Below the pieces are notes generated by a model, which did no database searches, had not been told where the DNA came from, and saw only the letters and a list, made by a program, of their open reading frames with translations. A stretch of 64,000 nt of DNA from an uncultured Rhizobium sp. (GTDB lineage: Bacteria; Pseudomonadota; Alphaproteobacteria; Caulobacterales; Hyphomonadaceae): assembly GCA_964407665.1 (NCBI GenBank), contig CAYOWK010000016.1, positions 13,288 to 77,287 of the forward strand, given 5' to 3'. Numbering within the stretch: the first letter of the stretch is position 1; every line of letters starts with the position of its first letter. The translations under genes and the position numbers were made by a program. Shown piece after piece: positions 7,440 through 64,000 of the stretch.

Positions 7440-7524
7440 GCGGGCGTGGCGAAACTGGTAGACGCATTCGACTTAAAATCGAATGGAGCAATCCGTGCCG
7501 GTTCAAGCCCGGCCGCCCGCACCA
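7440..7524 (+). tRNA. tRNA-Leu (anticodon TAA)
   Basis: Sequence GCGGGCG-TG-GCGAAACTGGTAGACGC...ttcgaCTTAAAAtcgaa...GGTTCAAGCCCGG-CCGCCCGC-A-CCA. Acceptor stem 7 bp. Long variable arm typical of tRNA-Leu. Encoded CCA end. Confidence 0.85.
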
Positions 7525-21777: not shown

Positions 21778-21941
21778 CGACGGGGGTTGGCGGTCCTATC
21801 TGGGCCCCGTGGTGATTTGTCCGGTCGGATTGCAGCCACGTTAAACAACTCGCTAAAAGGCCGTGGCGACGACACCTGCTTCTGCGCCCGGTCCTGTCAT
21901 GGTCCATCCCCTGTAGAGGGGCGAGCGCAAGGAAGTCCGCC

Positions 21942-54373: not shown

Positions 54374-54450
54374 TGGCGCGCCCGGAACGATTCGAACGTC
54401 CGACCCCCAGATTCGTAGTCTGGTGCTCTATCCAGCTGAGCTACGGGCGC
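54374..54450 (-). tRNA. tRNA-Arg (anticodon ACG)
   Basis: Reverse complement GCGCCCGTAGCTCAGCTGGATAGAGCACCAGACTACGAATCTGGGGGTCGGACGTTCGAATCGTTCCGGGCGCGCCA. 77 nt including CCA. Confidence 0.85.
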
Positions 54451-54778
54451 GCACTTGGGAGGGCGGGTTGTAGCGTCGAGGCCCCCGATGCGCAAGGGGG
54501 ACGCGGCGACTGAAATTTTCCTTCGTTGTCAGGGGGACGGCGCGTTCGGCGCGGATCTGCCCGCGGCGCCTCTTCGGGCGACGGGGCAGCCCGTCTGGCC
54601 GGTCAGGCTGTCTTCCGGGCCCCGCCAGGCTGCGTCTTCCGCCGGCAGATACAAATCGGCCCTTGCACGAATGTTGCATTTAAAAACAATGTTAGGCGGG
54701 ACCGGGGGCTGGGCATCCTTCATCCGGGGCGGGGAAGCAGGAGCCTGGGGGGCGATCCCCGAGGGGGGAGCCGAAGCC

Positions 54779-55339
54779 ATGAGTGCAGAGCCCAAGACGG
54801 CGCAGCTGCTGATGGAATGGCAGGGCGGGGCGGTGGACGCCCGCAACGCCCTGATCGCGCGCCTGCATCCGGAACTGTCGGTTATCGCTGCGGCGCGCCT
54901 GCGCAAGGACCGCAACTCGTCCCTGTCCACCGGCGATCTCATCAACGAGGCTGTCCTGCGCATCGCCACCGCCGAGGGACTGTCGGTGTCGGACCGCGCC
55001 CACATGCTGGCGCTTGCCTCCCGGGTCATGCGCAACATCCTGGTCGATCACGCCCGCTCCAAATCGTCCAACAAGCGCAAGCACCAGAAGGTCGAACTCT
55101 GCACCCGCATCGAAGGCGAACAACGGTTTGATCTGATCGGGCTCGATTCCGCGCTTGTCAGATTGAAGGTCGTCGACAGCGACCTCGCGGAGCTTGTCGA
55201 GATGCGGTATTTTGGCGGCATGACCATCACTGACGTTGCGGAAGTGACGGGCTGGTCCGAACCTACGGTCAAGCGCCGCTGGATGGTGGCCCGGGCCTGG
55301 CTGCTGGACTGCCTTGAAAATCAGGTGACCGATGACTGA
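54779..55339 (+). CDS. ECF-family RNA polymerase sigma factor (TIGR02999-like, kinase-associated ECF group)
   Basis: 186 aa. N-terminal TAQLLMEWQGGAVDARNALIARLHPEL motif typical of the ECF clade that pairs with Ser/Thr kinases. Sigma region 2 and 4 sequences present. Stop overlaps kinase ATG (ATGACTGA). Confidence 0.75.
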   Translation: MSAEPKTAQLLMEWQGGAVDARNALIARLHPELSVIAAARLRKDRNSSLSTGDLINEAVLRIATAEGLSVSDRAHMLALASRVMRNILVDHARSKSSNKRKHQKVELCTRIEGEQRFDLIGLDSALVRLKVVDSDLAELVEMRYFGGMTITDVAEVTGWSEPTVKRRWMVARAWLLDCLENQVTDD

Positions 55340-57725
55340 GGTTTCCCTCGACCGGGAAGCGCTCCGTCTGTTCGAGACCCTGCTGGAAACGGCGCCCGGC
55401 GACATCGAAGGCTGGCTGGCGGAACGGACGGCGGACCGTCCCGATCTTCTCAGCCGCATGCGTACGCTGCTGTCGGCGGACATGCGCGCCACGATGGCGA
55501 CGGGCGGCGCGGTGGAGTCGTTCGAGAGCTTCGATCCGCCCGAGCGCCTGGGCGCCTATCGCATCGGCGCGCCGATAGGACAGGGCGGCATGGGCTCTGT
55601 CTTTCATGCCGAGCGCGACAAGGGCGACTTTGCCCACAACGCAGCCGTCAAGATCATCAAGCCGGGTCTCCTGTCCGAGCGGCTGGTCGAGCGGTTCCGG
55701 CGCGAGCGGCAGATCCTCGCGGGCCTCAAGCATCCCAACATCGCCCAGCTCTACGATGGCGGCGAGACCGAGGAGGGCTCGCCCTACATCATCATGGAGT
55801 ATGTCGGCGGCCTGCCGATCCTCCAGTGGGCCGAGGCGCACGATGCCTCGCGCGAGGAACGCGTCGAGAAGTTCCGCCAGATCTGCACGGCGGTGGCGTT
55901 CGCCCACCGCAATCTCGTGGTGCACCGCGACATCACGCCGTCCAACGTCCTCGTCACGCCTGACGGCGTTGTGAAGCTGATCGATTTTGGCATCTCGCGG
56001 CCCGTGGATGAAGCCATCGCGGCCAGTCGCCCGGCCGGTCAGGCCTCGCTGCAGAGCCTCAGCCTGACGCCGGGCTACGCAGCGCCCGAGCGCCTCATCG
56101 GGGCCGACGTGTCGACGTCCGCCGACATCTATTCGCTGGGCAAGCTGCTGGAGAAGCTGCTCGCCAGCGAGGAGGTCAACCCCGAATTCGCGGCCATCGT
56201 CGCGCGGGCGTCCGCAGCTGTTCCGGCGGACCGCTATCCGACGGTCGAGGAGCTCTCGGCGGACCTCGACGCCTACCTTCAGAACCGTCCGGTAGCAGCC
56301 ATGCCCGGCGGCGGCGCCTATCGCTTCCGCAAGTTCATCCGCCGGCATCGCTTCGCCAGCATCGCCGTGGTGTCGGCGACCGCCATTCTTCTGAGCGCCT
56401 TTGGCGCAACCGCCGTCTCATACGTGAACGCCGAGAACGCCCGGGCGGCCGAGGCGCAAAGGTTCGGCGAGGTGCGCCAGCTGGCCAACTACCTGCTGTT
56501 CGACCTGAACGAGCAGCTTCGCCGCACGCCTGGCAACACGGCGGCCCGCGCCGACCTCGCGCAGAAGGCGCAGGGCTATCTGGAGGCGCTGGAAAAATCG
56601 CCGCTGGCCGACCGCGCCGTCAGGCTGGAGACGGCTACCGGCTTTCTGAGACTGGCGGAGATCCAGGGATCGCCCCTGGAGCGAAATCTGGGCGAGCGCG
56701 AAGCCGCCCGCGCCAACTTCGACAAGGCGCGGGCTCTGTTCGCAGCCCTGCGCATGGATTATGGCGACGCGACCGATATTCTGCTGCCGGAGTCCCGGCT
56801 CGAGACGAACGCGGGAATGGCCGCTCTCTATGGCGACGCGGACGCCGACAGTGCCCGCAAGCTGCTGGACCGGGCGCTGGCGCTGATCGAGCAGGTCCCC
56901 GAGACGGATCGCGGGCCAGAGTGGCATGTCGCGCGCGCCAATGTCGCCGAGTCCGATCTGGAATACATGGCCAGCAACGAACAGCCCGACGAACTCAAGG
57001 CGGCGGCGGAGGCCCAGATCGCCCGCATCCAGGCATGGCCCGAGGCCGCAAAGGCGGGGACGGATGACGAATTCCTGATCGCCACAGCGCGCTATAACCT
57101 AGGCGCGGCGTTCCAGCTGACGAGGGACGACGCCTCTGCCTTACCGCATTTCGCGGCTTCGCACGATGCTCTCGTTGCGCTTGAGGCCGCATCCCCGGGC
57201 GATGCCAACCTGCTGTACTGGATCGGGTGGGCGGGCGCCGAAGCCTACGCCGCAGGGGTCCGGCAGGATGACGCCTCCAAGTTCGAGCGCTTTCTGACGT
57301 CCTCCTCCGAGGCCTCCAGACGTTTGGCGGCCATCGAGGACAAGGACGAGTCGGCTTACGCGCTGAACATGATGTCGGGCGAGCTTTACGCCCAGCACCT
57401 CTCGAACGTTGGGCGCTATGAGGAGGCGATTGCCGAGCAGCGCCGCATCATCGACGAGCGCAAGCGCCGGATCGGCGGCGTGACCAACGAGCGTATCGGG
57501 ACCGATCTCGCCTTCAGCCAGATGATCCTTGGAACCATTGCCCGGAAGGCGGGAGACCGGGCGCTGACCTGCGAGATGTACACCAGCGCCGACGCGATCT
57601 TCACGCCCATCGACAAGGCCGGCAACCTTATTGCCTTCCAGGCTGCCTTCCTGCCGGGCATTCGCGCCAACGTGGACCGGTGCCGCAACGGCGAGCCCCT
57701 CTCGGCTTTCCAGCCCGTACGTTAA
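55332..57725 (+). CDS. serine/threonine protein kinase with TM segment and C-terminal TPR-like repeat domain
   Basis: Kinase subdomains GAPIGQGGMGSVFHA, AVKIIK, HRDITPSNVLV, DFGIS and APE. TM FASIAVVSATAILLSAF. Long helical repeat C-terminal region. Confidence 0.85.
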   Translation: MTEVSLDREALRLFETLLETAPGDIEGWLAERTADRPDLLSRMRTLLSADMRATMATGGAVESFESFDPPERLGAYRIGAPIGQGGMGSVFHAERDKGDFAHNAAVKIIKPGLLSERLVERFRRERQILAGLKHPNIAQLYDGGETEEGSPYIIMEYVGGLPILQWAEAHDASREERVEKFRQICTAVAFAHRNLVVHRDITPSNVLVTPDGVVKLIDFGISRPVDEAIAASRPAGQASLQSLSLTPGYAAPERLIGADVSTSADIYSLGKLLEKLLASEEVNPEFAAIVARASAAVPADRYPTVEELSADLDAYLQNRPVAAMPGGGAYRFRKFIRRHRFASIAVVSATAILLSAFGATAVSYVNAENARAAEAQRFGEVRQLANYLLFDLNEQLRRTPGNTAARADLAQKAQGYLEALEKSPLADRAVRLETATGFLRLAEIQGSPLERNLGEREAARANFDKARALFAALRMDYGDATDILLPESRLETNAGMAALYGDADADSARKLLDRALALIEQVPETDRGPEWHVARANVAESDLEYMASNEQPDELKAAAEAQIARIQAWPEAAKAGTDDEFLIATARYNLGAAFQLTRDDASALPHFAASHDALVALEAASPGDANLLYWIGWAGAEAYAAGVRQDDASKFERFLTSSSEASRRLAAIEDKDESAYALNMMSGELYAQHLSNVGRYEEAIAEQRRIIDERKRRIGGVTNERIGTDLAFSQMILGTIARKAGDRALTCEMYTSADAIFTPIDKAGNLIAFQAAFLPGIRANVDRCRNGEPLSAFQPVR

Positions 57726-57905: not shown

Positions 57906-58454
57906 ATGAACGACCCGATCCAGATTCCGGCGGAATACCTGCCCATCATCGACGCCATCTACACCGGCACGATTGTCTTCACAGCGGTCTGGCTGCTGCT
58001 GGTCCTGCTGATCATCCTGCGCCGCCGCGCCTCGAACCTCACGCCGATCCATGCCGCCAAGGTCAACCGCAACGCGACGCCTGACTTCCTGTCGGTCGAC
58101 CACAAGAAGCAGAAGCAGATGCTGAAGGACGGCGCGACCTACGACGCCGAACTCGACCGCCGCGACGCGAACCAGGAGAAGGCGGATCGCGAAACGCGCC
58201 GCGGGCCCGAGACGGCCATGTCCCGCATCGCCCGCCTGATTGCGCTGCTGATGTCGATCTTCACGCTCGCCACGATGATCGGCTCGGTCATCTTCAACGT
58301 GAACTACATCGGCGGGATGCTGCAGACCTACTCGGCTGGCGACCGCTTCATGTCGGTCATCACCAACCATCCGATCGCCACGTCCGTCGCCGTGATCGTC
58401 ATCGGCTACCACATCTACAGCTACATCGCCGGCAAGAAGTGGCGCCCGGCCTGA
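57906..58454 (+). CDS. 3-TM membrane protein, hypothetical (first gene of kinase/FHA/SPFH operon)
   Basis: 182 aa. TM1 IVFTAVWLLLVLLIIL. Charged middle region. Two C-terminal TMs. Confidence 0.5.
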   Translation: MNDPIQIPAEYLPIIDAIYTGTIVFTAVWLLLVLLIILRRRASNLTPIHAAKVNRNATPDFLSVDHKKQKQMLKDGATYDAELDRRDANQEKADRETRRGPETAMSRIARLIALLMSIFTLATMIGSVIFNVNYIGGMLQTYSAGDRFMSVITNHPIATSVAVIVIGYHIYSYIAGKKWRPA

Positions 58455-58519: not shown

Positions 58520-60115
58520 ATGGTCACCGAAACAATCACAGTCAGCGATCCCCGGATCCTCGCCGAATTCATCAAGCAGGACCGCTTCAAGGGCATCTTC
58601 GAGAAGCGGATCGGCGTCCCGCCGGACCACATGGCTCTGCTGATGCGCAATGGCGAGTTCGTCGACGCTTACATTGGCGCCCACTTCTCGGCTGGCGGCA
58701 TCATCCACCGGATGCGCGGTATCGTTGGCGGCTCGCACCAGATCAGCCTGCTGATTGCCGATCTCAAGACCTTCCAGCTCAAGATGCCCCTGCGGGCCAC
58801 AAGCGCGGACAATGTCGAGATCGTCGGAACGGCGTCCATCGACCTCCAGATCAATCCGGAGAAGCCGCAAAACATCATCGGCATCATGCAGGCGCGGAAG
58901 TTCCTGCTGAAGTCCGACATTCTCGAACGCATCAAGTCGCACATCTCCGACCGCGTCGTTGAAGCCGCCGTTGGCCGCATGAAGGCGGAAGAGCTGCGCG
59001 GCAATATCGGCTTGCAGGACAAGATCCAGGCCGACCTGATCACGGAAGTCGAGCGGGTCGTCGGCGACCTTGGCGTGCTGATCCGCGCCGTGTCGGTCGA
59101 ATGGGCGGTCAACGAGATCGAGCGCGAGGCGATGGACCGCGCTGTCGCCGAGCGGCAGCAGGAGCAGATGGACTACCGGCTCGCCACCATCAAGCGCGAG
59201 CTCGCGAGGACGATGGAATCCGAGACCGTCCAGATCCAGGCCAATGTCGATCTTGCGAAGCTCCAGGGCGCCAGCGAGGCCGAAATCGCGAAGATGGTGC
59301 TCGACAACGAGCTGTCCTTCGTCGACGCCCGCGAAACCGGCCAGCGCGTCCAGGAGCTGAAGGCGCTCCAGCACGAGATCGAGGTTCTGGAGCGCGAACG
59401 CGCTGTTCAGATGAAGAACGCGCTGGAAGACGCCGACCACGTCGTCAACCTGACGGAACGCCAGGCGAAGCTCAGCGCGCTCGAGCGGGACATCAAGAAG
59501 CTCGACGTCGAGCTGAAGATCCAGCTGGAGAGCGCCGAGGCGATGGCGAAGATCGCCATCCAGAAAGCTCAGGACGCCGCCGCCGTTGCGAAGATCGCCG
59601 CGCTTCAGGAGGTCGAGCTGAAAGGCTTCGCCGAGGAGACTGTCATCAAGGACAACTCGGCGAACAACCAGACCCAGCGCGAGATCAATGTCATCAACGC
59701 CAACGCGGCGGTCAAGCAGGGCGAGCTCGGCATTTACGCGGGCATGTCGCCCGAGCAGATCCTCGCCGTGAGCGCTGGTCTCAGCCCGGCTGTCGCGGCG
59801 GTGCTGGCCGAGCAGGCCAAGGCGTCGGGACAGGGCAACGCCCAGACCATGGCGATCATGCAGCAGATGGTCGATCAAGCTAACCGCGCGCACGTCCAGT
59901 CCGAGCAGCAGGCCCGCGCCATGTTCGAGATGGGCATGAAGGGCGCGGTCGGCGTCTCCCACGGCGCTGGCGGCAAGTCCGCAGGCGCCGCGTCCGCCGC
60001 CATGGGCGAGGAGCCCCCGAAGGCTGCCGGGTCCGAGTGCCCGAAATGCCATCACGTGAATGCGCTCGACATCCGCTTCTGCCGCAATTGCGGAACCCAG
60101 CTCCGGACCAACTGA
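58520..60115 (+). CDS. soluble SPFH/band-7 (flotillin-like) domain protein with long coiled coil and C-terminal zinc ribbon
   Basis: N-terminal ~230 aa with the SPFH fold pattern. Coiled coil of ~250 aa. C-terminal CPKCHHVNALDIRFCRNCGTQL (CxxC-x12-CxxC). Confidence 0.65.
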   Translation: MVTETITVSDPRILAEFIKQDRFKGIFEKRIGVPPDHMALLMRNGEFVDAYIGAHFSAGGIIHRMRGIVGGSHQISLLIADLKTFQLKMPLRATSADNVEIVGTASIDLQINPEKPQNIIGIMQARKFLLKSDILERIKSHISDRVVEAAVGRMKAEELRGNIGLQDKIQADLITEVERVVGDLGVLIRAVSVEWAVNEIEREAMDRAVAERQQEQMDYRLATIKRELARTMESETVQIQANVDLAKLQGASEAEIAKMVLDNELSFVDARETGQRVQELKALQHEIEVLERERAVQMKNALEDADHVVNLTERQAKLSALERDIKKLDVELKIQLESAEAMAKIAIQKAQDAAAVAKIAALQEVELKGFAEETVIKDNSANNQTQREINVINANAAVKQGELGIYAGMSPEQILAVSAGLSPAVAAVLAEQAKASGQGNAQTMAIMQQMVDQANRAHVQSEQQARAMFEMGMKGAVGVSHGAGGKSAGAASAAMGEEPPKAAGSECPKCHHVNALDIRFCRNCGTQLRTN

Positions 60116-60116
60116 G

Positions 60117-61265
60117 ATGATGACGGACCCCGTCAACGCCACAACAGTCAGCTCCTGCTGTTTTAAGACGGCGGCTGACGCGTCGGCCTCCTTCTGCGGC
60201 GACTGCGGCAAGCCCGTCCTGCGCTGCATGGCGTGGGCGGAGTGCGGCGGCCTGGTCGGCGACGACGGGCGCTGCACGGTCTGCGTCCGGCCCCAACTCT
60301 TTCTCGACAAGGGCGCCGTGCGGGAGGTGAAGGTCGGCGGACGCATGGTCCTGCCGCTCCTGTTCCGGAACGATGCAGCTGTGGGCCGTCCGCTGTTCGT
60401 AACCCGCGTATGGGTGAAGGAGGGCAATGGCGAGCGTGTCCAGCAGGAGCTGGCCTGGGAGCGTCTGGATGGCGGCATGGCGCTGCCGTGGTCGCTGCAG
60501 ACCAGCCCGCTCGATGTGGCAGGCCGGGTTCGCATCGAGATCAGCTTTGCAGTGGCCACGCGCTATCGCTGGAGGCAGGAGACGTTCCTCTTTGTCGCCG
60601 AACTCGACATGGAGGCCGAAGGCGGCGGCGAGCTGGTCATCAACCAGACAATCCACGCCTCGGACGCCGCCACCGCCTACGCGCCGATCCGCATCGATCC
60701 GTCGCGAATGGCCAAGGCTGCTGCAGCGATCCAGCCAGCGCAACTCGCCCTGGTGCGCGGTGAGAGGCTTGAACGGGCCGAGGCGATCCGCGGATATCCT
60801 GACGACGGCGCCATCCAGCGCGGCGCCCGGCTGCACTGGAAGGGCTTTGCCTCCAGCGAAGCCCCGATGGACGGGCCGATTACTGCGCCAGACAGCCTTC
60901 TGGGCTTTGGACGCGCACTGACCCGCCGCAGCGGCGGCGAGGGCGATGTCCGCCTGCTCGTGCGCGACGCGGACGGCGTCATCGACGACGGCCTGTCCGC
61001 CGCCATCTCACGCCGTCACCTCGATCTCTTCATCCAGGATGGCCGCCTCTATGTTCACGCCGCCGGCGGTACGGGCCTCCTCCTGAACGACCGCTCCCTT
61101 GGGCGCGGGTCGATCGCACCAATCCAGGACGGCGACACCCTCAGCGTCCTGCCGATGGCGAAGTCCGCCATCTCCCTCACGTTCAGCTTCAAGGCGCACC
61201 ACCGGATCGTGGAAGACATCACGATCCAGCGCGCACCGGCATTCAGGGAAGCCACACGCAGATGA
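60117..61265 (+). CDS. N-terminal double zinc-ribbon + C-terminal FHA-domain protein
   Basis: The ATG lies 1 bp after the previous stop. CCFKTAADASASFCGDCGKP...CTVCVRP Cys clusters. FHA sequence GRALTRRSGGEGDVRLLV...ISRRHLDLFIQDGRLYVHAAGGTGLLLNDRSL...DGDTLSV. Confidence 0.65.
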   Translation: MMTDPVNATTVSSCCFKTAADASASFCGDCGKPVLRCMAWAECGGLVGDDGRCTVCVRPQLFLDKGAVREVKVGGRMVLPLLFRNDAAVGRPLFVTRVWVKEGNGERVQQELAWERLDGGMALPWSLQTSPLDVAGRVRIEISFAVATRYRWRQETFLFVAELDMEAEGGGELVINQTIHASDAATAYAPIRIDPSRMAKAAAAIQPAQLALVRGERLERAEAIRGYPDDGAIQRGARLHWKGFASSEAPMDGPITAPDSLLGFGRALTRRSGGEGDVRLLVRDADGVIDDGLSAAISRRHLDLFIQDGRLYVHAAGGTGLLLNDRSLGRGSIAPIQDGDTLSVLPMAKSAISLTFSFKAHHRIVEDITIQRAPAFREATRR

Positions 61266-62782
61266 AGTGCCCATTCTGTCAGGCCGCAAACCCCGCCGAC
61301 GCCATCTACTGTGGCGAGTGCGGCAAGCGGATCGTTGAGAAACTGGCCTTCCAGGAAACGGACGCCAGCGCCTTCGCCAATGAATCGACTCGCCGCCCGT
61401 CCGATGGCAACCGTCACATACTGGCGCCGGGCGAGGTGTTCGCAGGCCGCTACACCATCGCCGCCGTCATTGGCGAGGGCGGCATGGGCACCGTCTACCG
61501 GGCCGACGACCGCGTCACCGGACAGAGCGTGGCGCTAAAGCTCGTTCGCGCCGACCGCCTCGCAGGCACAGGCGCTGTCCAGCGCATGATCCAGGAAGGC
61601 ATCACCTCCCGCGACATCCGCCATCCGAACGTCGTCGCCGTCTACGACGTGGGCGAGGCCAGCGGCCAGCCCTACCTCTCGATGGAGCATCTCAACGGCC
61701 TCTCGCTGCGGTCGTGGACCCGCCAGCAGATGGCCGCCGGAACCGACTGCTCGATGAAGGCGGCATCCCGCATCGTTCTCGAAATCCTTGCAGGCCTCGA
61801 AGCCGCGCATGCAGCAGGTGTCGTCCATCGCGACCTCAAGCCCGAAAACGTCATGCTGCTGTCGCAGCCGACGGACGACGCCGTGAAACTGAAGTTGCTG
61901 GATTTCGGGATCGCCCGCGCCGGCGGCGCCACCGACACTGGCATGACCTCGACCGGCACCGCCCGCTACATGGCGCCGGAGCAGGCGACGGCCCCGGACG
62001 CCGTGCAGCCCTCCGCCGATCTCTATTCGCTGTCGGTCATGTTCTACGAGCTGCTTGTAGGCGTGGTCCCGCAAGGCCACTGGCAGCCGCCGAGCGGCGG
62101 CCGGTCCGATGTGCCCCAGGGCATCGACGACCTCATCCAGCGCGGCCTCTCGAATGCGCCCCGGTCGCGCCCGCAGTCCGCCGCCGAGTACCGCGGCCTG
62201 CTGGAAACCGTGCTCAAGGGCGGGAAGGCTCCCAAGCCAGAACCCAAGCCAGAACCCAAGCCCGATCCGAAGCCGGTTCCGAATCCGTTCGCCAACATCT
62301 GGCCGCCAAAAGGGAAACAGTGGATCTGGTGGGGCGCCGCCGCCGCGGTTGCGGTCGCCGCCTTCGCGATGAGCGAGATGGACATCGATCCCGGCACGGG
62401 CCCCACTCCCGAGCCTGACTGGGTGCAGCGCGAAGACCCGGTCGGGCCCGTCATCGGCCCCACGCCGCCTCCGGCCCAGCCTTCGTTCACACAGCTGAGT
62501 GGCCGCTGGTATGACGATTTCGGCAATGCCTGGAGCGTCCAGGTCAATGGCAATGGCGGATTTTCAGGGCGCGCCACCAGCGGGGACCTGCGCGGGTGGA
62601 TCATGGAGGGCGGCTTCTCCAACGGCTACGCCCAGCTGACCATCGGCCAACCTGGCAACCCGGTGGCGAGCGTCTCAGGCACGTTCGACCAGTGCCACAT
62701 CTACTACAGCGCGCCGGACGCGATGGGCAACGTTGGTCCTCGCGAGATCCACTTCAACCACGGGGCCAATACCTCATGCTGA
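61262..62782 (+). CDS. serine/threonine protein kinase with N-terminal zinc ribbon, TM segment and C-terminal periplasmic novel repeat domain
   Basis: ATGA overlap with FHA gene. MKCPFCQAANPADAIYCGECGKRI zinc ribbon. Kinase motifs GEGGMGTVYRA, ALKLV, HRDLKPENVML, DFGIA and APE. PEPKPEPKP linker. TM WIWWGAAAAVAVAAFAM. C-terminal ~95-aa repeat unit. Confidence 0.8.
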   Translation: MKCPFCQAANPADAIYCGECGKRIVEKLAFQETDASAFANESTRRPSDGNRHILAPGEVFAGRYTIAAVIGEGGMGTVYRADDRVTGQSVALKLVRADRLAGTGAVQRMIQEGITSRDIRHPNVVAVYDVGEASGQPYLSMEHLNGLSLRSWTRQQMAAGTDCSMKAASRIVLEILAGLEAAHAAGVVHRDLKPENVMLLSQPTDDAVKLKLLDFGIARAGGATDTGMTSTGTARYMAPEQATAPDAVQPSADLYSLSVMFYELLVGVVPQGHWQPPSGGRSDVPQGIDDLIQRGLSNAPRSRPQSAAEYRGLLETVLKGGKAPKPEPKPEPKPDPKPVPNPFANIWPPKGKQWIWWGAAAAVAVAAFAMSEMDIDPGTGPTPEPDWVQREDPVGPVIGPTPPPAQPSFTQLSGRWYDDFGNAWSVQVNGNGGFSGRATSGDLRGWIMEGGFSNGYAQLTIGQPGNPVASVSGTFDQCHIYYSAPDAMGNVGPREIHFNHGANTSC

Positions 62783-63657
62783 TCTCTCGCACCCTGATCG
62801 CTGGACTGGCTGCGACTCTTCTGGCGGGCGTTTCCGCCTGCAAGGCGCCCATTCCGGGACGCACTGCGGAAGAGCAGGCGGCAAAATGGTCCTCCGCAGA
62901 GTGGCGGGACGACATCGGCAATATCTGGCAGGCCACTGTCGAGGGCGGCAAGGTGACGGCCAGAGGCGTCGCCGGCGCCTCGCAGGGCCTGACGCTCAGC
63001 GGCGCATTCACGGCAGAGGGCTTGCCCTACACGATCGCGCTGCCGGATGGCTCGGTGATCGCAGAAGGCGAGGCGAAGCTCGTCGACGAGAGTCATGCCC
63101 TCTTTGCAACCCGCCTGATCAATGGCGAGACCAACGCCCACGGGCTGCTGCACTTCAATCACGCAGCCACGATCTCCACGATGCTGGAAGCGGCTGGCGG
63201 CCAACCCATGCCGCAGGTCTCGGACCTCTCGGGCGCGTGGATGGACGATGGCGGCAATGTCTGGGCGGTCTCCATCGACCGTGACGGCAAGCTTCTCGGC
63301 GTCGGCGCGAGCGGCGCTGTGATCGGCGGCAAGTTCGAGGGCTCGCTGGCAGGGGGCAAGCTGACCTACGTCGCAACCGGGCCGGACGGATCGTCGATGG
63401 CCGGCGGCGGCGAGTGGGACGGCGGATGCCATGTCTCCTGGCGCACCCTCGCTGAAACGCCCCTGCTCGAAAACGGCGGCGCTCTGCACATCAACCACGC
63501 ACCTGGCCAGAACTGCGACGGTACATGGCAAGGTTCCGCCGAAACGCCGCTCGACGGCGCCGTCAACGCCGATTTGTCGGGCCCGCGTGATCCGGTTTCC
63601 GGAGAAACGACGCCATTAGCTGATGAGAGGGGTCCTGTGGACCTCACGCCGAAATAG
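62776..63657 (+). CDS. lipoprotein composed of two copies of the kinase-tail repeat domain
   Basis: The ATG overlaps the kinase stop. Lipobox LLAGVSAC. Two ~100-aa units, each with W-x-DD-x-GN-x-W ... H-(F/I)-N-H. Confidence 0.6.
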   Translation: MLISRTLIAGLAATLLAGVSACKAPIPGRTAEEQAAKWSSAEWRDDIGNIWQATVEGGKVTARGVAGASQGLTLSGAFTAEGLPYTIALPDGSVIAEGEAKLVDESHALFATRLINGETNAHGLLHFNHAATISTMLEAAGGQPMPQVSDLSGAWMDDGGNVWAVSIDRDGKLLGVGASGAVIGGKFEGSLAGGKLTYVATGPDGSSMAGGGEWDGGCHVSWRTLAETPLLENGGALHINHAPGQNCDGTWQGSAETPLDGAVNADLSGPRDPVSGETTPLADERGPVDLTPK

Positions 63658-63690: not shown

Positions 63691-64000
63691 ATGTCGCGCA
63701 GCAGGAAGCTTCTCGGCGGGTGCATCCCGGAGACGACGCCCGCTCCGGCGCCCCAGATGCAGGTGCTGGCCGCCGCCCAGCCGCCCAGCGAGGTCGATCT
63801 GCGTGACATGTGTTCCCCGATCGAGCACCAGTACAACATCGGCAGCTGCACGTCGCAGGCTGTGGTCGCCGCCCTCGAGTACCACCAGCGCCGCCTCTAC
63901 GGGCAGCACACCGATCTCTCGCGCCTCTTCCTGCACTTCAACGCGCGCCGCATGGCGGGCAATGAAGGCAAGGAGATGGGCTCATCCCTGCACCAGTGCC
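63691..64000 (+). CDS. papain-like (C1 family) cysteine peptidase, N-terminal fragment (continues beyond window)
   Basis: IEHQYNIGSCTSQAVVAALEY matches the C1 oxyanion-Gln-x5-catalytic-Cys (Q...GSCW) layout. ORF is open to the window end. Confidence 0.5.
   Translation, partial: MSRSRKLLGGCIPETTPAPAPQMQVLAAAQPPSEVDLRDMCSPIEHQYNIGSCTSQAVVAALEYHQRRLYGQHTDLSRLFLHFNARRMAGNEGKEMGSSLHQC

Follow-up and report, generated by a model that had tools for sequence, protein, structure and literature searches.

Proteins of the avidin/streptavidin family (PF01382), among them streptavidin, rhizavidin, agroavidin and shwanavidin, are eight-stranded antiparallel up-and-down beta-barrels that occur as free tetrameric proteins, and avidins are obligate oligomers. 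To our knowledge, the avidin fold has been described almost exclusively in biotin-trapping proteins, and the input domains of bacterial Hanks-type Ser/Thr kinases are poorly known outside the PASTA kinases. Here we describe domain X, a unit of about 100 amino acids (aa) located at the C-terminal end of a receptor-type Ser/Thr kinase and, in two copies, in the lipoprotein encoded directly downstream. The genes lie in a 64,000-nucleotide (nt) stretch of an uncultured Rhizobium sp. assigned by GTDB to the Hyphomonadaceae (assembly GCA_964407665.1, contig CAYOWK010000016.1, positions 13,288 to 77,287), referred to as the window. At slightly better than even odds (about 0.55), X is a divergent, non-biotin avidin-like barrel that provides Hanks-type Ser/Thr-kinase signalling systems with an input or binding module outside the cytoplasm. 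A literature search found no description of an avidin-like kinase sensor or of a gene cluster combining FHA, SPFH and papain-like proteins. The features that bear on X are as follows, in window coordinates.

61262..62782, + strand: receptor-type Ser/Thr kinase of 506 aa, with a Zn-ribbon (aa 2-24), a Hanks kinase domain (aa 64-274), a transmembrane helix, a Pro-rich linker and a C-terminal X
62315..62374, + strand: single transmembrane helix of the kinase (about aa 352-371, WIWWGAAAAVAVAAFAM), from a hydropathy scan
62375..62479, + strand: Pro-rich periplasmic linker from the helix to X (38 aa, 34% Pro plus Gln)
62480-62779, + strand: domain X, kinase copy (kinase aa 407-506; K subtype; predicted avidin-like eight-stranded barrel)
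62776-63657, + strand: lipoprotein of 293 aa, lipobox ending at Cys22, orthologues P0001-P0007
62776..62841, + strand: signal peptide and lipobox of the lipoprotein (LLAGVSA, C22)
62884-63180, + strand: domain X, lipoprotein copy 1 (aa 37-135; L subtype; HA.F and HGLLHFNH motifs; without the Cys pair)
63220-63516, + strand: domain X, lipoprotein copy 2 (aa 149-247; K subtype; Cys pair C218/C247)
63631..63651, + strand: lipoprotein motif GPVDLTP, at the tip of a disordered C-terminal tail (family consensus P.DLRP)

The three copies of X aligned over their full length with 27-33% identity. In BLASTP the kinase tail matched copy 2 at E=8e-11 and copy 1 at E=7e-10, and the two lipoprotein copies matched each other at E=9e-11 (33% identity). 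Smith-Waterman scores between the copies were 103-116 against means of 27-33 for shuffled sequences (z = 13.7-15.1), and none of 2000 composition-preserving shuffles matched the observed score. The first-pass annotation of the window, made from the letters and the open reading frames, had proposed a repeat of about 95 aa common to the kinase tail and the downstream lipoprotein, and had named Gly-rich noise as its possible undoing. The repeat proved genuine: all aligned copies lie within the 62400-63657 interval given for it, and the similarity withstood the shuffles. The skeleton read at that stage, SG-W-x-DD-x-GN-x-W ... H-[FI]-N-H, was also correct, with the W, G44 and two His invariant in 47 members of the family. 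Two subtypes, kinase-type (K) and lipoprotein-type (L), were compared using hidden Markov models (HMMs) built with the clade of the window left out. The kinase tail scored 87 bits to the K-type HMM versus 41 to the L-type HMM, copy 1 scored 115 bits to the L-type versus 57 to the K-type, and copy 2 scored 91 bits to the K-type versus 46 to the L-type. Judged by these scores, the window lipoprotein consists of a lipoprotein-type barrel extended by an added kinase-type one.

The AlphaFold2 model of X, made from a 13-sequence alignment, had a predicted local distance difference test (pLDDT) score of 93 and a predicted template modelling (pTM) score of 0.82. It contained eight consecutive antiparallel strands in the up-and-down barrel arrangement of avidins, bearing out the beta-rich fold expected at first pass. 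The top 45 Foldseek matches of the model were all avidin-family chains (E from 5e-3, probability 1.0, template modelling scores 0.46-0.60). When a 47-sequence profile of X was searched against 177,635 PDB sequences, every match at E<=0.01 belonged to the avidin family (2.7e-4 to 6e-3), including a streptavidin/rhizavidin hybrid (2.7e-4), avidin (1.2e-3), agroavidin (2e-3) and rhizavidin (6e-3). The alignment spanned strands 1-5 with the GxW(Y)(N/D)xxG(S/N) motif, and the X stretch 'LSGvWyDdlGnvwqVsvsgaGqfsG' was paired in it with a 25-residue avidin segment. A comparison by hhalign with an alignment of three avidin sequences, which were entered by hand, gave 92.6% probability locally (E 4.7e-7) and 66% globally. 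PF01382 itself gave no match in 47 isolated domains at E<=10 and none in 60 full-length proteins at E<=0.001, and X falls outside this family as Pfam defines it. X is certainly a structural analogue of the avidins and probably a remote homologue of them; the domain that had gone unrecognised at first pass is thus recognisable as an avidin/streptavidin-like eight-stranded barrel. The avidins are the closest known family and share with X both the fold and the N-terminal motif. However, X is shorter, has loop 3-4 deleted and has lost most biotin-contact residues, whereas it carries a conserved His triad of its own, joined in the K subtype by a Cys pair. X also occurs as the C-terminal part of larger proteins (kinases, lipoproteins, caspases), in contrast to the free avidin tetramer.

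To delimit the family, an exhaustive profile search of 1.84 billion representative proteins was performed, and 95 representatives were found at E<=1e-3, of which 51 reached E<=1e-10. No Pfam, NCBIfam or PADLOC model matched the X unit, the lipoprotein, 60 full-length relatives or 47 isolated domains; the unit left unnamed at first pass is therefore without any Pfam or NCBIfam model. Cluster look-ups returned no informative names. On these searches, the domain X family is rare, real and previously uncatalogued. In 47 diverse members aligned at about 20-40% identity, and numbered along the 100-aa kinase tail, W10, G44, H91 and H94 were invariant (kinase W416, G450, H497 and H500), and D12 and H73 (kinase D418 and H479) were conserved in more than 90%. 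K-type copies additionally carried an invariant Cys pair, comprising C72 beside H73 and the Cys of the C-terminal ...PG.PCP (kinase Cys478/Cys506), as would be expected if a disulfide formed in the periplasm held the tail close to the His cluster. In every architecture X was extracytoplasmic, placed either after a signal peptide or lipobox or after a transmembrane helix and a P/Q-rich linker. It was nearly always C-terminal, ending 0-5 residues from the C-terminus in most members. The 95 representatives were distributed among the following architectures.

31 of 95: Ser/Thr-kinase fusions (Zn-ribbon, Pkinase, transmembrane helix, P/Q-rich linker with a median of 44 aa, X)
19 of 95: small lipoproteins
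7 of 95: a helical cytoplasmic domain of about 110 aa, transmembrane helix, long P/Q linker, X
2 of 95: signal peptide, Peptidase_C14 (caspase), X
25 of 95: short fragments or other
11 of 95: partial matches in long repetitive proteins, discounted

The 31 kinase fusions show that X recurs on signalling proteins, a point put forward for checking at first pass. P0038, P0071, P0078, P0084, P0090, P0096, P0097, P0102 and P0103 were long repetitive proteins matched only in partial stretches; they were set aside as probably spurious. A word-indexed search queried with the lipoprotein found only nine relatives; queried with the 115-aa kinase tail (62435-62779), it returned one candidate and no match, missing even the protein from which the query was taken. 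The full kinase is its own cluster representative in that collection, and the miss probably reflects an index limit for short queries.

The kinase matched Pfam Pkinase at E=9e-43 and contains the VALK, HRDLKPEN, DFG and APE (as MAPE) motifs of Hanks-type kinases; since all catalytic motifs are present, it should be active. The N-terminal matches to DZR/Zn_Ribbon_1 were sub-threshold in Pfam. Lys residues before the transmembrane helix and acidic residues after it indicated, together with the hydropathy scan, an N-in/C-out topology. This is a receptor-type layout, with one helix between a cytoplasmic kinase and an extracytoplasmic C-terminal domain, and at least 24 homologues are built alike; their family median for the linker was 44 aa with 33% Pro plus Gln. 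The periplasmic location proposed in the first-pass annotation is thereby supported, by the kinase helix and Pro-rich linker, by the lipobox of the lipoprotein and by the Cys pair in kinase-type copies. Against the NCBIfam Stk1 model NF033483 the kinase scored 220 bits, below the cut-off of 450 and over the kinase domain only, and the NCBIfam scan revealed no PASTA domains in it. Compared with Hanks receptor kinases such as PknB, the overall kinase works alike, whereas its N-terminal Zn-ribbon is unusual and its ectodomain belongs to a different family from those of the PASTA kinases PknB/Stk1 and of the PknI sensor (PDB 5xlm).

The kinase and lipoprotein genes belong to an operon whose other members, and the genes adjoining it, are listed below.

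54374-54450, - strand: tRNA-Arg(ACG), about 40 nt upstream of the ECF sigma gene
54488-55339, + strand: extracytoplasmic function (ECF) sigma factor PF07638 (Pfam), adjoining the operon
55332-57725, + strand: 797-aa Ser/Thr kinase with TPRs (Pfam), adjoining the operon
57906..58454, + strand: 182-aa protein with several transmembrane segments (TM182), first operon gene, recognised by conserved synteny
58520..60115, + strand: 531-aa SPFH-like protein, with an SPFH-like N-terminal region, a coiled-coil part and a C-terminal Zn-ribbon
60117..61265, + strand: FHA-domain protein with an N-terminal Cys-rich ribbon (Pfam FHA E=2.8e-5), its stop overlapping the kinase start
63691..64000, running off the window, + strand: first of three papain-like (Peptidase_C1) genes (gene calls, Pfam, translation)

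The SPFH-like N-terminal assignment was a reading by eye without Pfam support, and the Zn-ribbon matches of this protein were sub-threshold. The lipoprotein ATG precedes the kinase stop, so that the two genes share 7 nt (ATGCTGA). Because the genes overlap or abut, and because no terminator-like site was found on the + strand between 57906 and 64000, the kinase and lipoprotein genes are, on their layout, co-transcribed and probably translationally coupled. The translated Peptidase_C1 proteins showed no signal peptide or pro-region and, lacking a signal peptide, are predicted to be cytoplasmic. Those compared (L001 9268-10272, 10286-11284 and 11295-12251; L005 10501-11460; L009 7302-8333 and 8341-9291) share the N-terminal motif '..GGC[LI].E..P', and all end in '...DLxxAKKGFRDRLRGPG.GGGY'; a 58-aa open reading frame in L009 (7092-7268) consists of the GGGY tail of Peptidase_C1 alone. 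Cys4 zinc-ribbons, sub-threshold in Pfam, occur in three consecutive operon proteins (58520-62782), at the SPFH-like C-terminus, the FHA N-terminus and the kinase N-terminus, and may mediate assembly of these three proteins. In Hyphomonas neptunium, an ECF43 sigma factor is activated via phosphorylation by the neighbouring kinase (review, PMC8999054), and the ECF sigma/kinase pair of the window may be, by analogy, of this kind. The idea of a known anti-phage system was dropped, as PADLOC gave generic kinase-domain matches only and none for the other genes of the cluster.

A genome scan with a 12-sequence K-type alignment yielded 31 loci, which together with two fetched earlier made 33, a set biased by the K-type query towards kinase-borne copies of X. 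The 31 scanned loci came mostly from Hyphomonadaceae, and otherwise from other Caulobacterales, Parvularculaceae and Sphingosinicella-like metagenome-assembled genomes; Hyphomonas oceanitis, H. polymorpha, H. chukchiensis, H. beringensis and H. pacifica were among the cultured carriers. Across the 33 loci the order TM182, SPFH-like, FHA, kinase-X, optional lipoprotein-X and one to three Peptidase_C1 genes was invariant wherever the contig reached. FHA, kinase-X and Peptidase_C1 followed in this order in all 33, and the SPFH-like gene was present in each of the 28 whose contig extended to its position. In 25 of these loci an ECF sigma factor, a large kinase or both adjoined the operon; most of the other eight lie on contigs that end too near it to tell. 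Two tandem kinase catalytic domains preceded a single X in seven loci (L011, L012, L013, L014, L016, L018 and L028), which suggests a duplicated kinase without ectodomain.

X was also found in operons without Peptidase_C1. A second operon type (L042 1776-9035, L046 3494-9008 and L045 1-1844) encodes Pkinase, PP2C, a PrsW protease, VWA and the protein consisting of the helical domain, a transmembrane helix and X. The VWA gene lay directly upstream of the last of these in all three cases, and an FHA-FHA gene was located upstream of the operon in L042 only. Furthermore, a periplasmic caspase (Peptidase_C14)-X protein was encoded at L044 8001-9554, neighboured by TPR/DUF900, OmpA and a second caspase-DUF4384 gene.

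The lipoprotein class was defined by its lipobox, so that all 19 class representatives carry one; in the window protein, MLISRTLIAGLAATLLAGVSA followed by C22 agrees with [LVI][ASTVI][GAS]C by reading of the sequence. Of the 33 loci, about 10 encode a free lipoprotein, and the lipoprotein is accordingly an optional accessory, not an obligatory partner. The first-pass suggestion of a co-receptor or decoy stands only in part: the kinase subtype of copy 2 fits it, whereas the scattered occurrence of the lipoprotein argues for an accessory role. Lipoproteins and inner-membrane sensors are known to act as envelope stress pairs in RcsF-IgaA and NlpE-CpxA. These likewise combine a lipoprotein with an inner-membrane signalling protein, encoded or acting together in the periplasm; however, their folds and outputs are unrelated, whereas both candidate partners here share a homologous domain. 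An AlphaFold2 model of the whole lipoprotein, intended for a comparison of barrel pairing with single-chain dimeric streptavidin, was poor (pLDDT 63, pTM 0.48). In the C-terminal tail, G286, P287, D289, L290 and P292 were invariant in P0001-P0007 and the remainder was variable, and [DE][LI][RL]P was found in 15 of 20 other lipoprotein-type representatives. The P.DLRP motif, which also occurs at the C-termini of the P0008-P0051 lipoproteins, could be a docking peptide; bradavidin, for comparison, has an intrinsic C-terminal ligand (PMC3344845).

The positions of the conserved residues in the barrel were deduced from strand alternation. Because I74, F/Y76, L/F90 and I/V/F92 face the core by hydrophobic alternation, H73, the first residue of strand 7, and H91 in strand 8 are expected to point outward and, from the hairpin register, to be cross-strand neighbours. 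N93 and H94 follow directly. W10 and D12 would point inward on strand 1, with D12 at the end where avidins bind biotin.

Several other explanations of X were weighed. That the similarity is compositional, or stems from a recent local duplication outside any family, was given practically no weight and was ruled out: the units are Gly-rich (12-22%), but z values of 14-15 against shuffles, 95 representatives at E<=1e-3 (51 at <=1e-10) sharing the same invariant residues, and a confident fold prediction contradict it. That X is a bona fide biotin-binding avidin, serving the kinase as a sensor or the lipoprotein as a scavenger of periplasmic biotin, gains credit from the avidins ranking top by both fold and profile. 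Streptavidin contacts biotin through N23, S27, Y43, S45, N49, W79, S88, T90, W92, W108, W120 and D128. In the profile alignments, polar counterparts in X were found only for N23, as a nearly invariant Asp, and S27, as Asn or Gly. However, the Y43 position is Gly or Ala, the loop 3-4 lid bearing S45 and N49 is deleted (six residues), and the residue aligned with D128 is hydrophobic in every one of the 47 sequences. The only conserved Trp residues are W10 and W18, none lying in strands 5-8 or matching W79, W92, W108 or W120. No family member reached the Pfam Avidin model, and the family-specific invariant His have no avidin counterpart. X thus appears to lack the biotin site and, by its residues, is very probably not a biotin binder; the biotin reading was rejected on the absent contact residues and the unmatched PF01382.

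Small eight-stranded barrels are also encoded beside a peptidase gene in the staphostatins and in Inh/LupI, as is X, which could by this likeness be a protease inhibitor controlling the downstream papain-like peptidases. Such a role was rejected as improbable, given the mismatch of compartments: the peptidases, without signal peptide or pro-region, are predicted to be cytoplasmic, whereas X is extracytoplasmic, so that the predicted locations separate X from its co-encoded peptidase. Inhibitor barrels also scored below avidins in the fold search, and X occurs in operons devoid of Peptidase_C1. A passive anchor or spacer, binding peptidoglycan, an outer-membrane component or itself and positioning the kinase, lipoprotein or caspase without sensing, is unlikely yet carries some weight. 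X always lies C-terminally behind long flexible P/Q-rich linkers and also occurs on periplasmic enzymes of an unrelated kind, caspases for example, avidins in general are obligate oligomers, and the conserved terminal peptide of the lipoproteins could dock elsewhere. Nevertheless, that W, D and three His stay invariant in a family of about 20-40% identity speaks for a specific chemical site and against a generic surface, and the repeated operon link with Ser/Thr kinase, FHA and PP2C fits an input role.

This link recurs in two architectures that are unrelated to each other; it is the chief argument for X as an input module, and a sensor role is plausible on it. On this reading X would receive the signal for a gene cluster conserved among Hyphomonas-like marine bacteria. 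In the favoured mechanism, X would be held in the periplasm on its flexible Pro-rich linker behind the single transmembrane helix of an active-looking kinase. The cue would be periplasmic or envelope-derived, such as a small ligand, a metal ion or a partner protein, and might engage the inward W/D pair at the avidin ligand end and/or the outward His cluster H479/H497/H500 on strands 7-8. Binding could change the oligomeric state of X or its contacts with partners (X-X or X-lipoprotein) and thereby alter kinase autophosphorylation. The FHA protein of the operon would recognise the resulting phospho-Thr and relay the signal to the SPFH-like protein and to the papain-like peptidases in the cytoplasm. 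The lipoprotein, combining an L-type X, a K-type X and the P.DLRP peptide, would probably modulate the kinase ectodomain as co-receptor, competitor or tether.

Several points weigh against this interpretation. The sequence similarity to avidins is weak, PF01382 being missed even at E<=10 and hhalign reaching 66% globally against hand-entered avidin sequences, and a small eight-stranded barrel can be of convergent origin. Strand alternation and meander topology are the basis for placing the three His together and the W/D pair inside, and the ligand, metal or partner of X is postulated. The long flexible linker fits a tethering role equally well, and the poor lipoprotein model (pLDDT 63, pTM 0.48) says nothing on X-X contacts. 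About two-thirds of the loci are without the lipoprotein, so that a model dependent on it cannot be general.

A further-reaching version of the input-module reading can be put forward, which we regard as doubtful. In it X would be a new class of avidin-fold receptor that binds a metal or envelope ligand through its surface His triad and internal W/D pair, and the P.DLRP peptide would be a bradavidin-like intrinsic ligand of the kinase barrel. The lipoprotein-kinase tether across the periplasm would then report envelope state to the module of FHA, SPFH-like and papain-like peptidase proteins and to the neighbouring phosphorylation-activated ECF sigma factor.

If X is indeed a signalling input domain, it would define a new sensor-domain family suited to a Pfam entry, and a non-biotin branch of avidin-like proteins would have been recruited as a signalling ectodomain. 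X recurs in two operon types with Ser/Thr kinase and FHA genes and in periplasmic caspases. It would also offer an experimental handle on a strictly conserved, uncharacterised gene cluster of the Hyphomonadaceae, for which the cultured strains H. polymorpha PS728 and H. oceanitis SCH89 are available. The small stable barrel with its His cluster may interest protein engineers as well.

Elsewhere in the window, two features fit an alphaproteobacterial origin: a SAM_alpha riboswitch, which belongs to an alphaproteobacterial family, was detected at 21799-21876 (+ strand, 78 bits), and tRNA-Leu(TAA) is located at 7440-7524 (+ strand).

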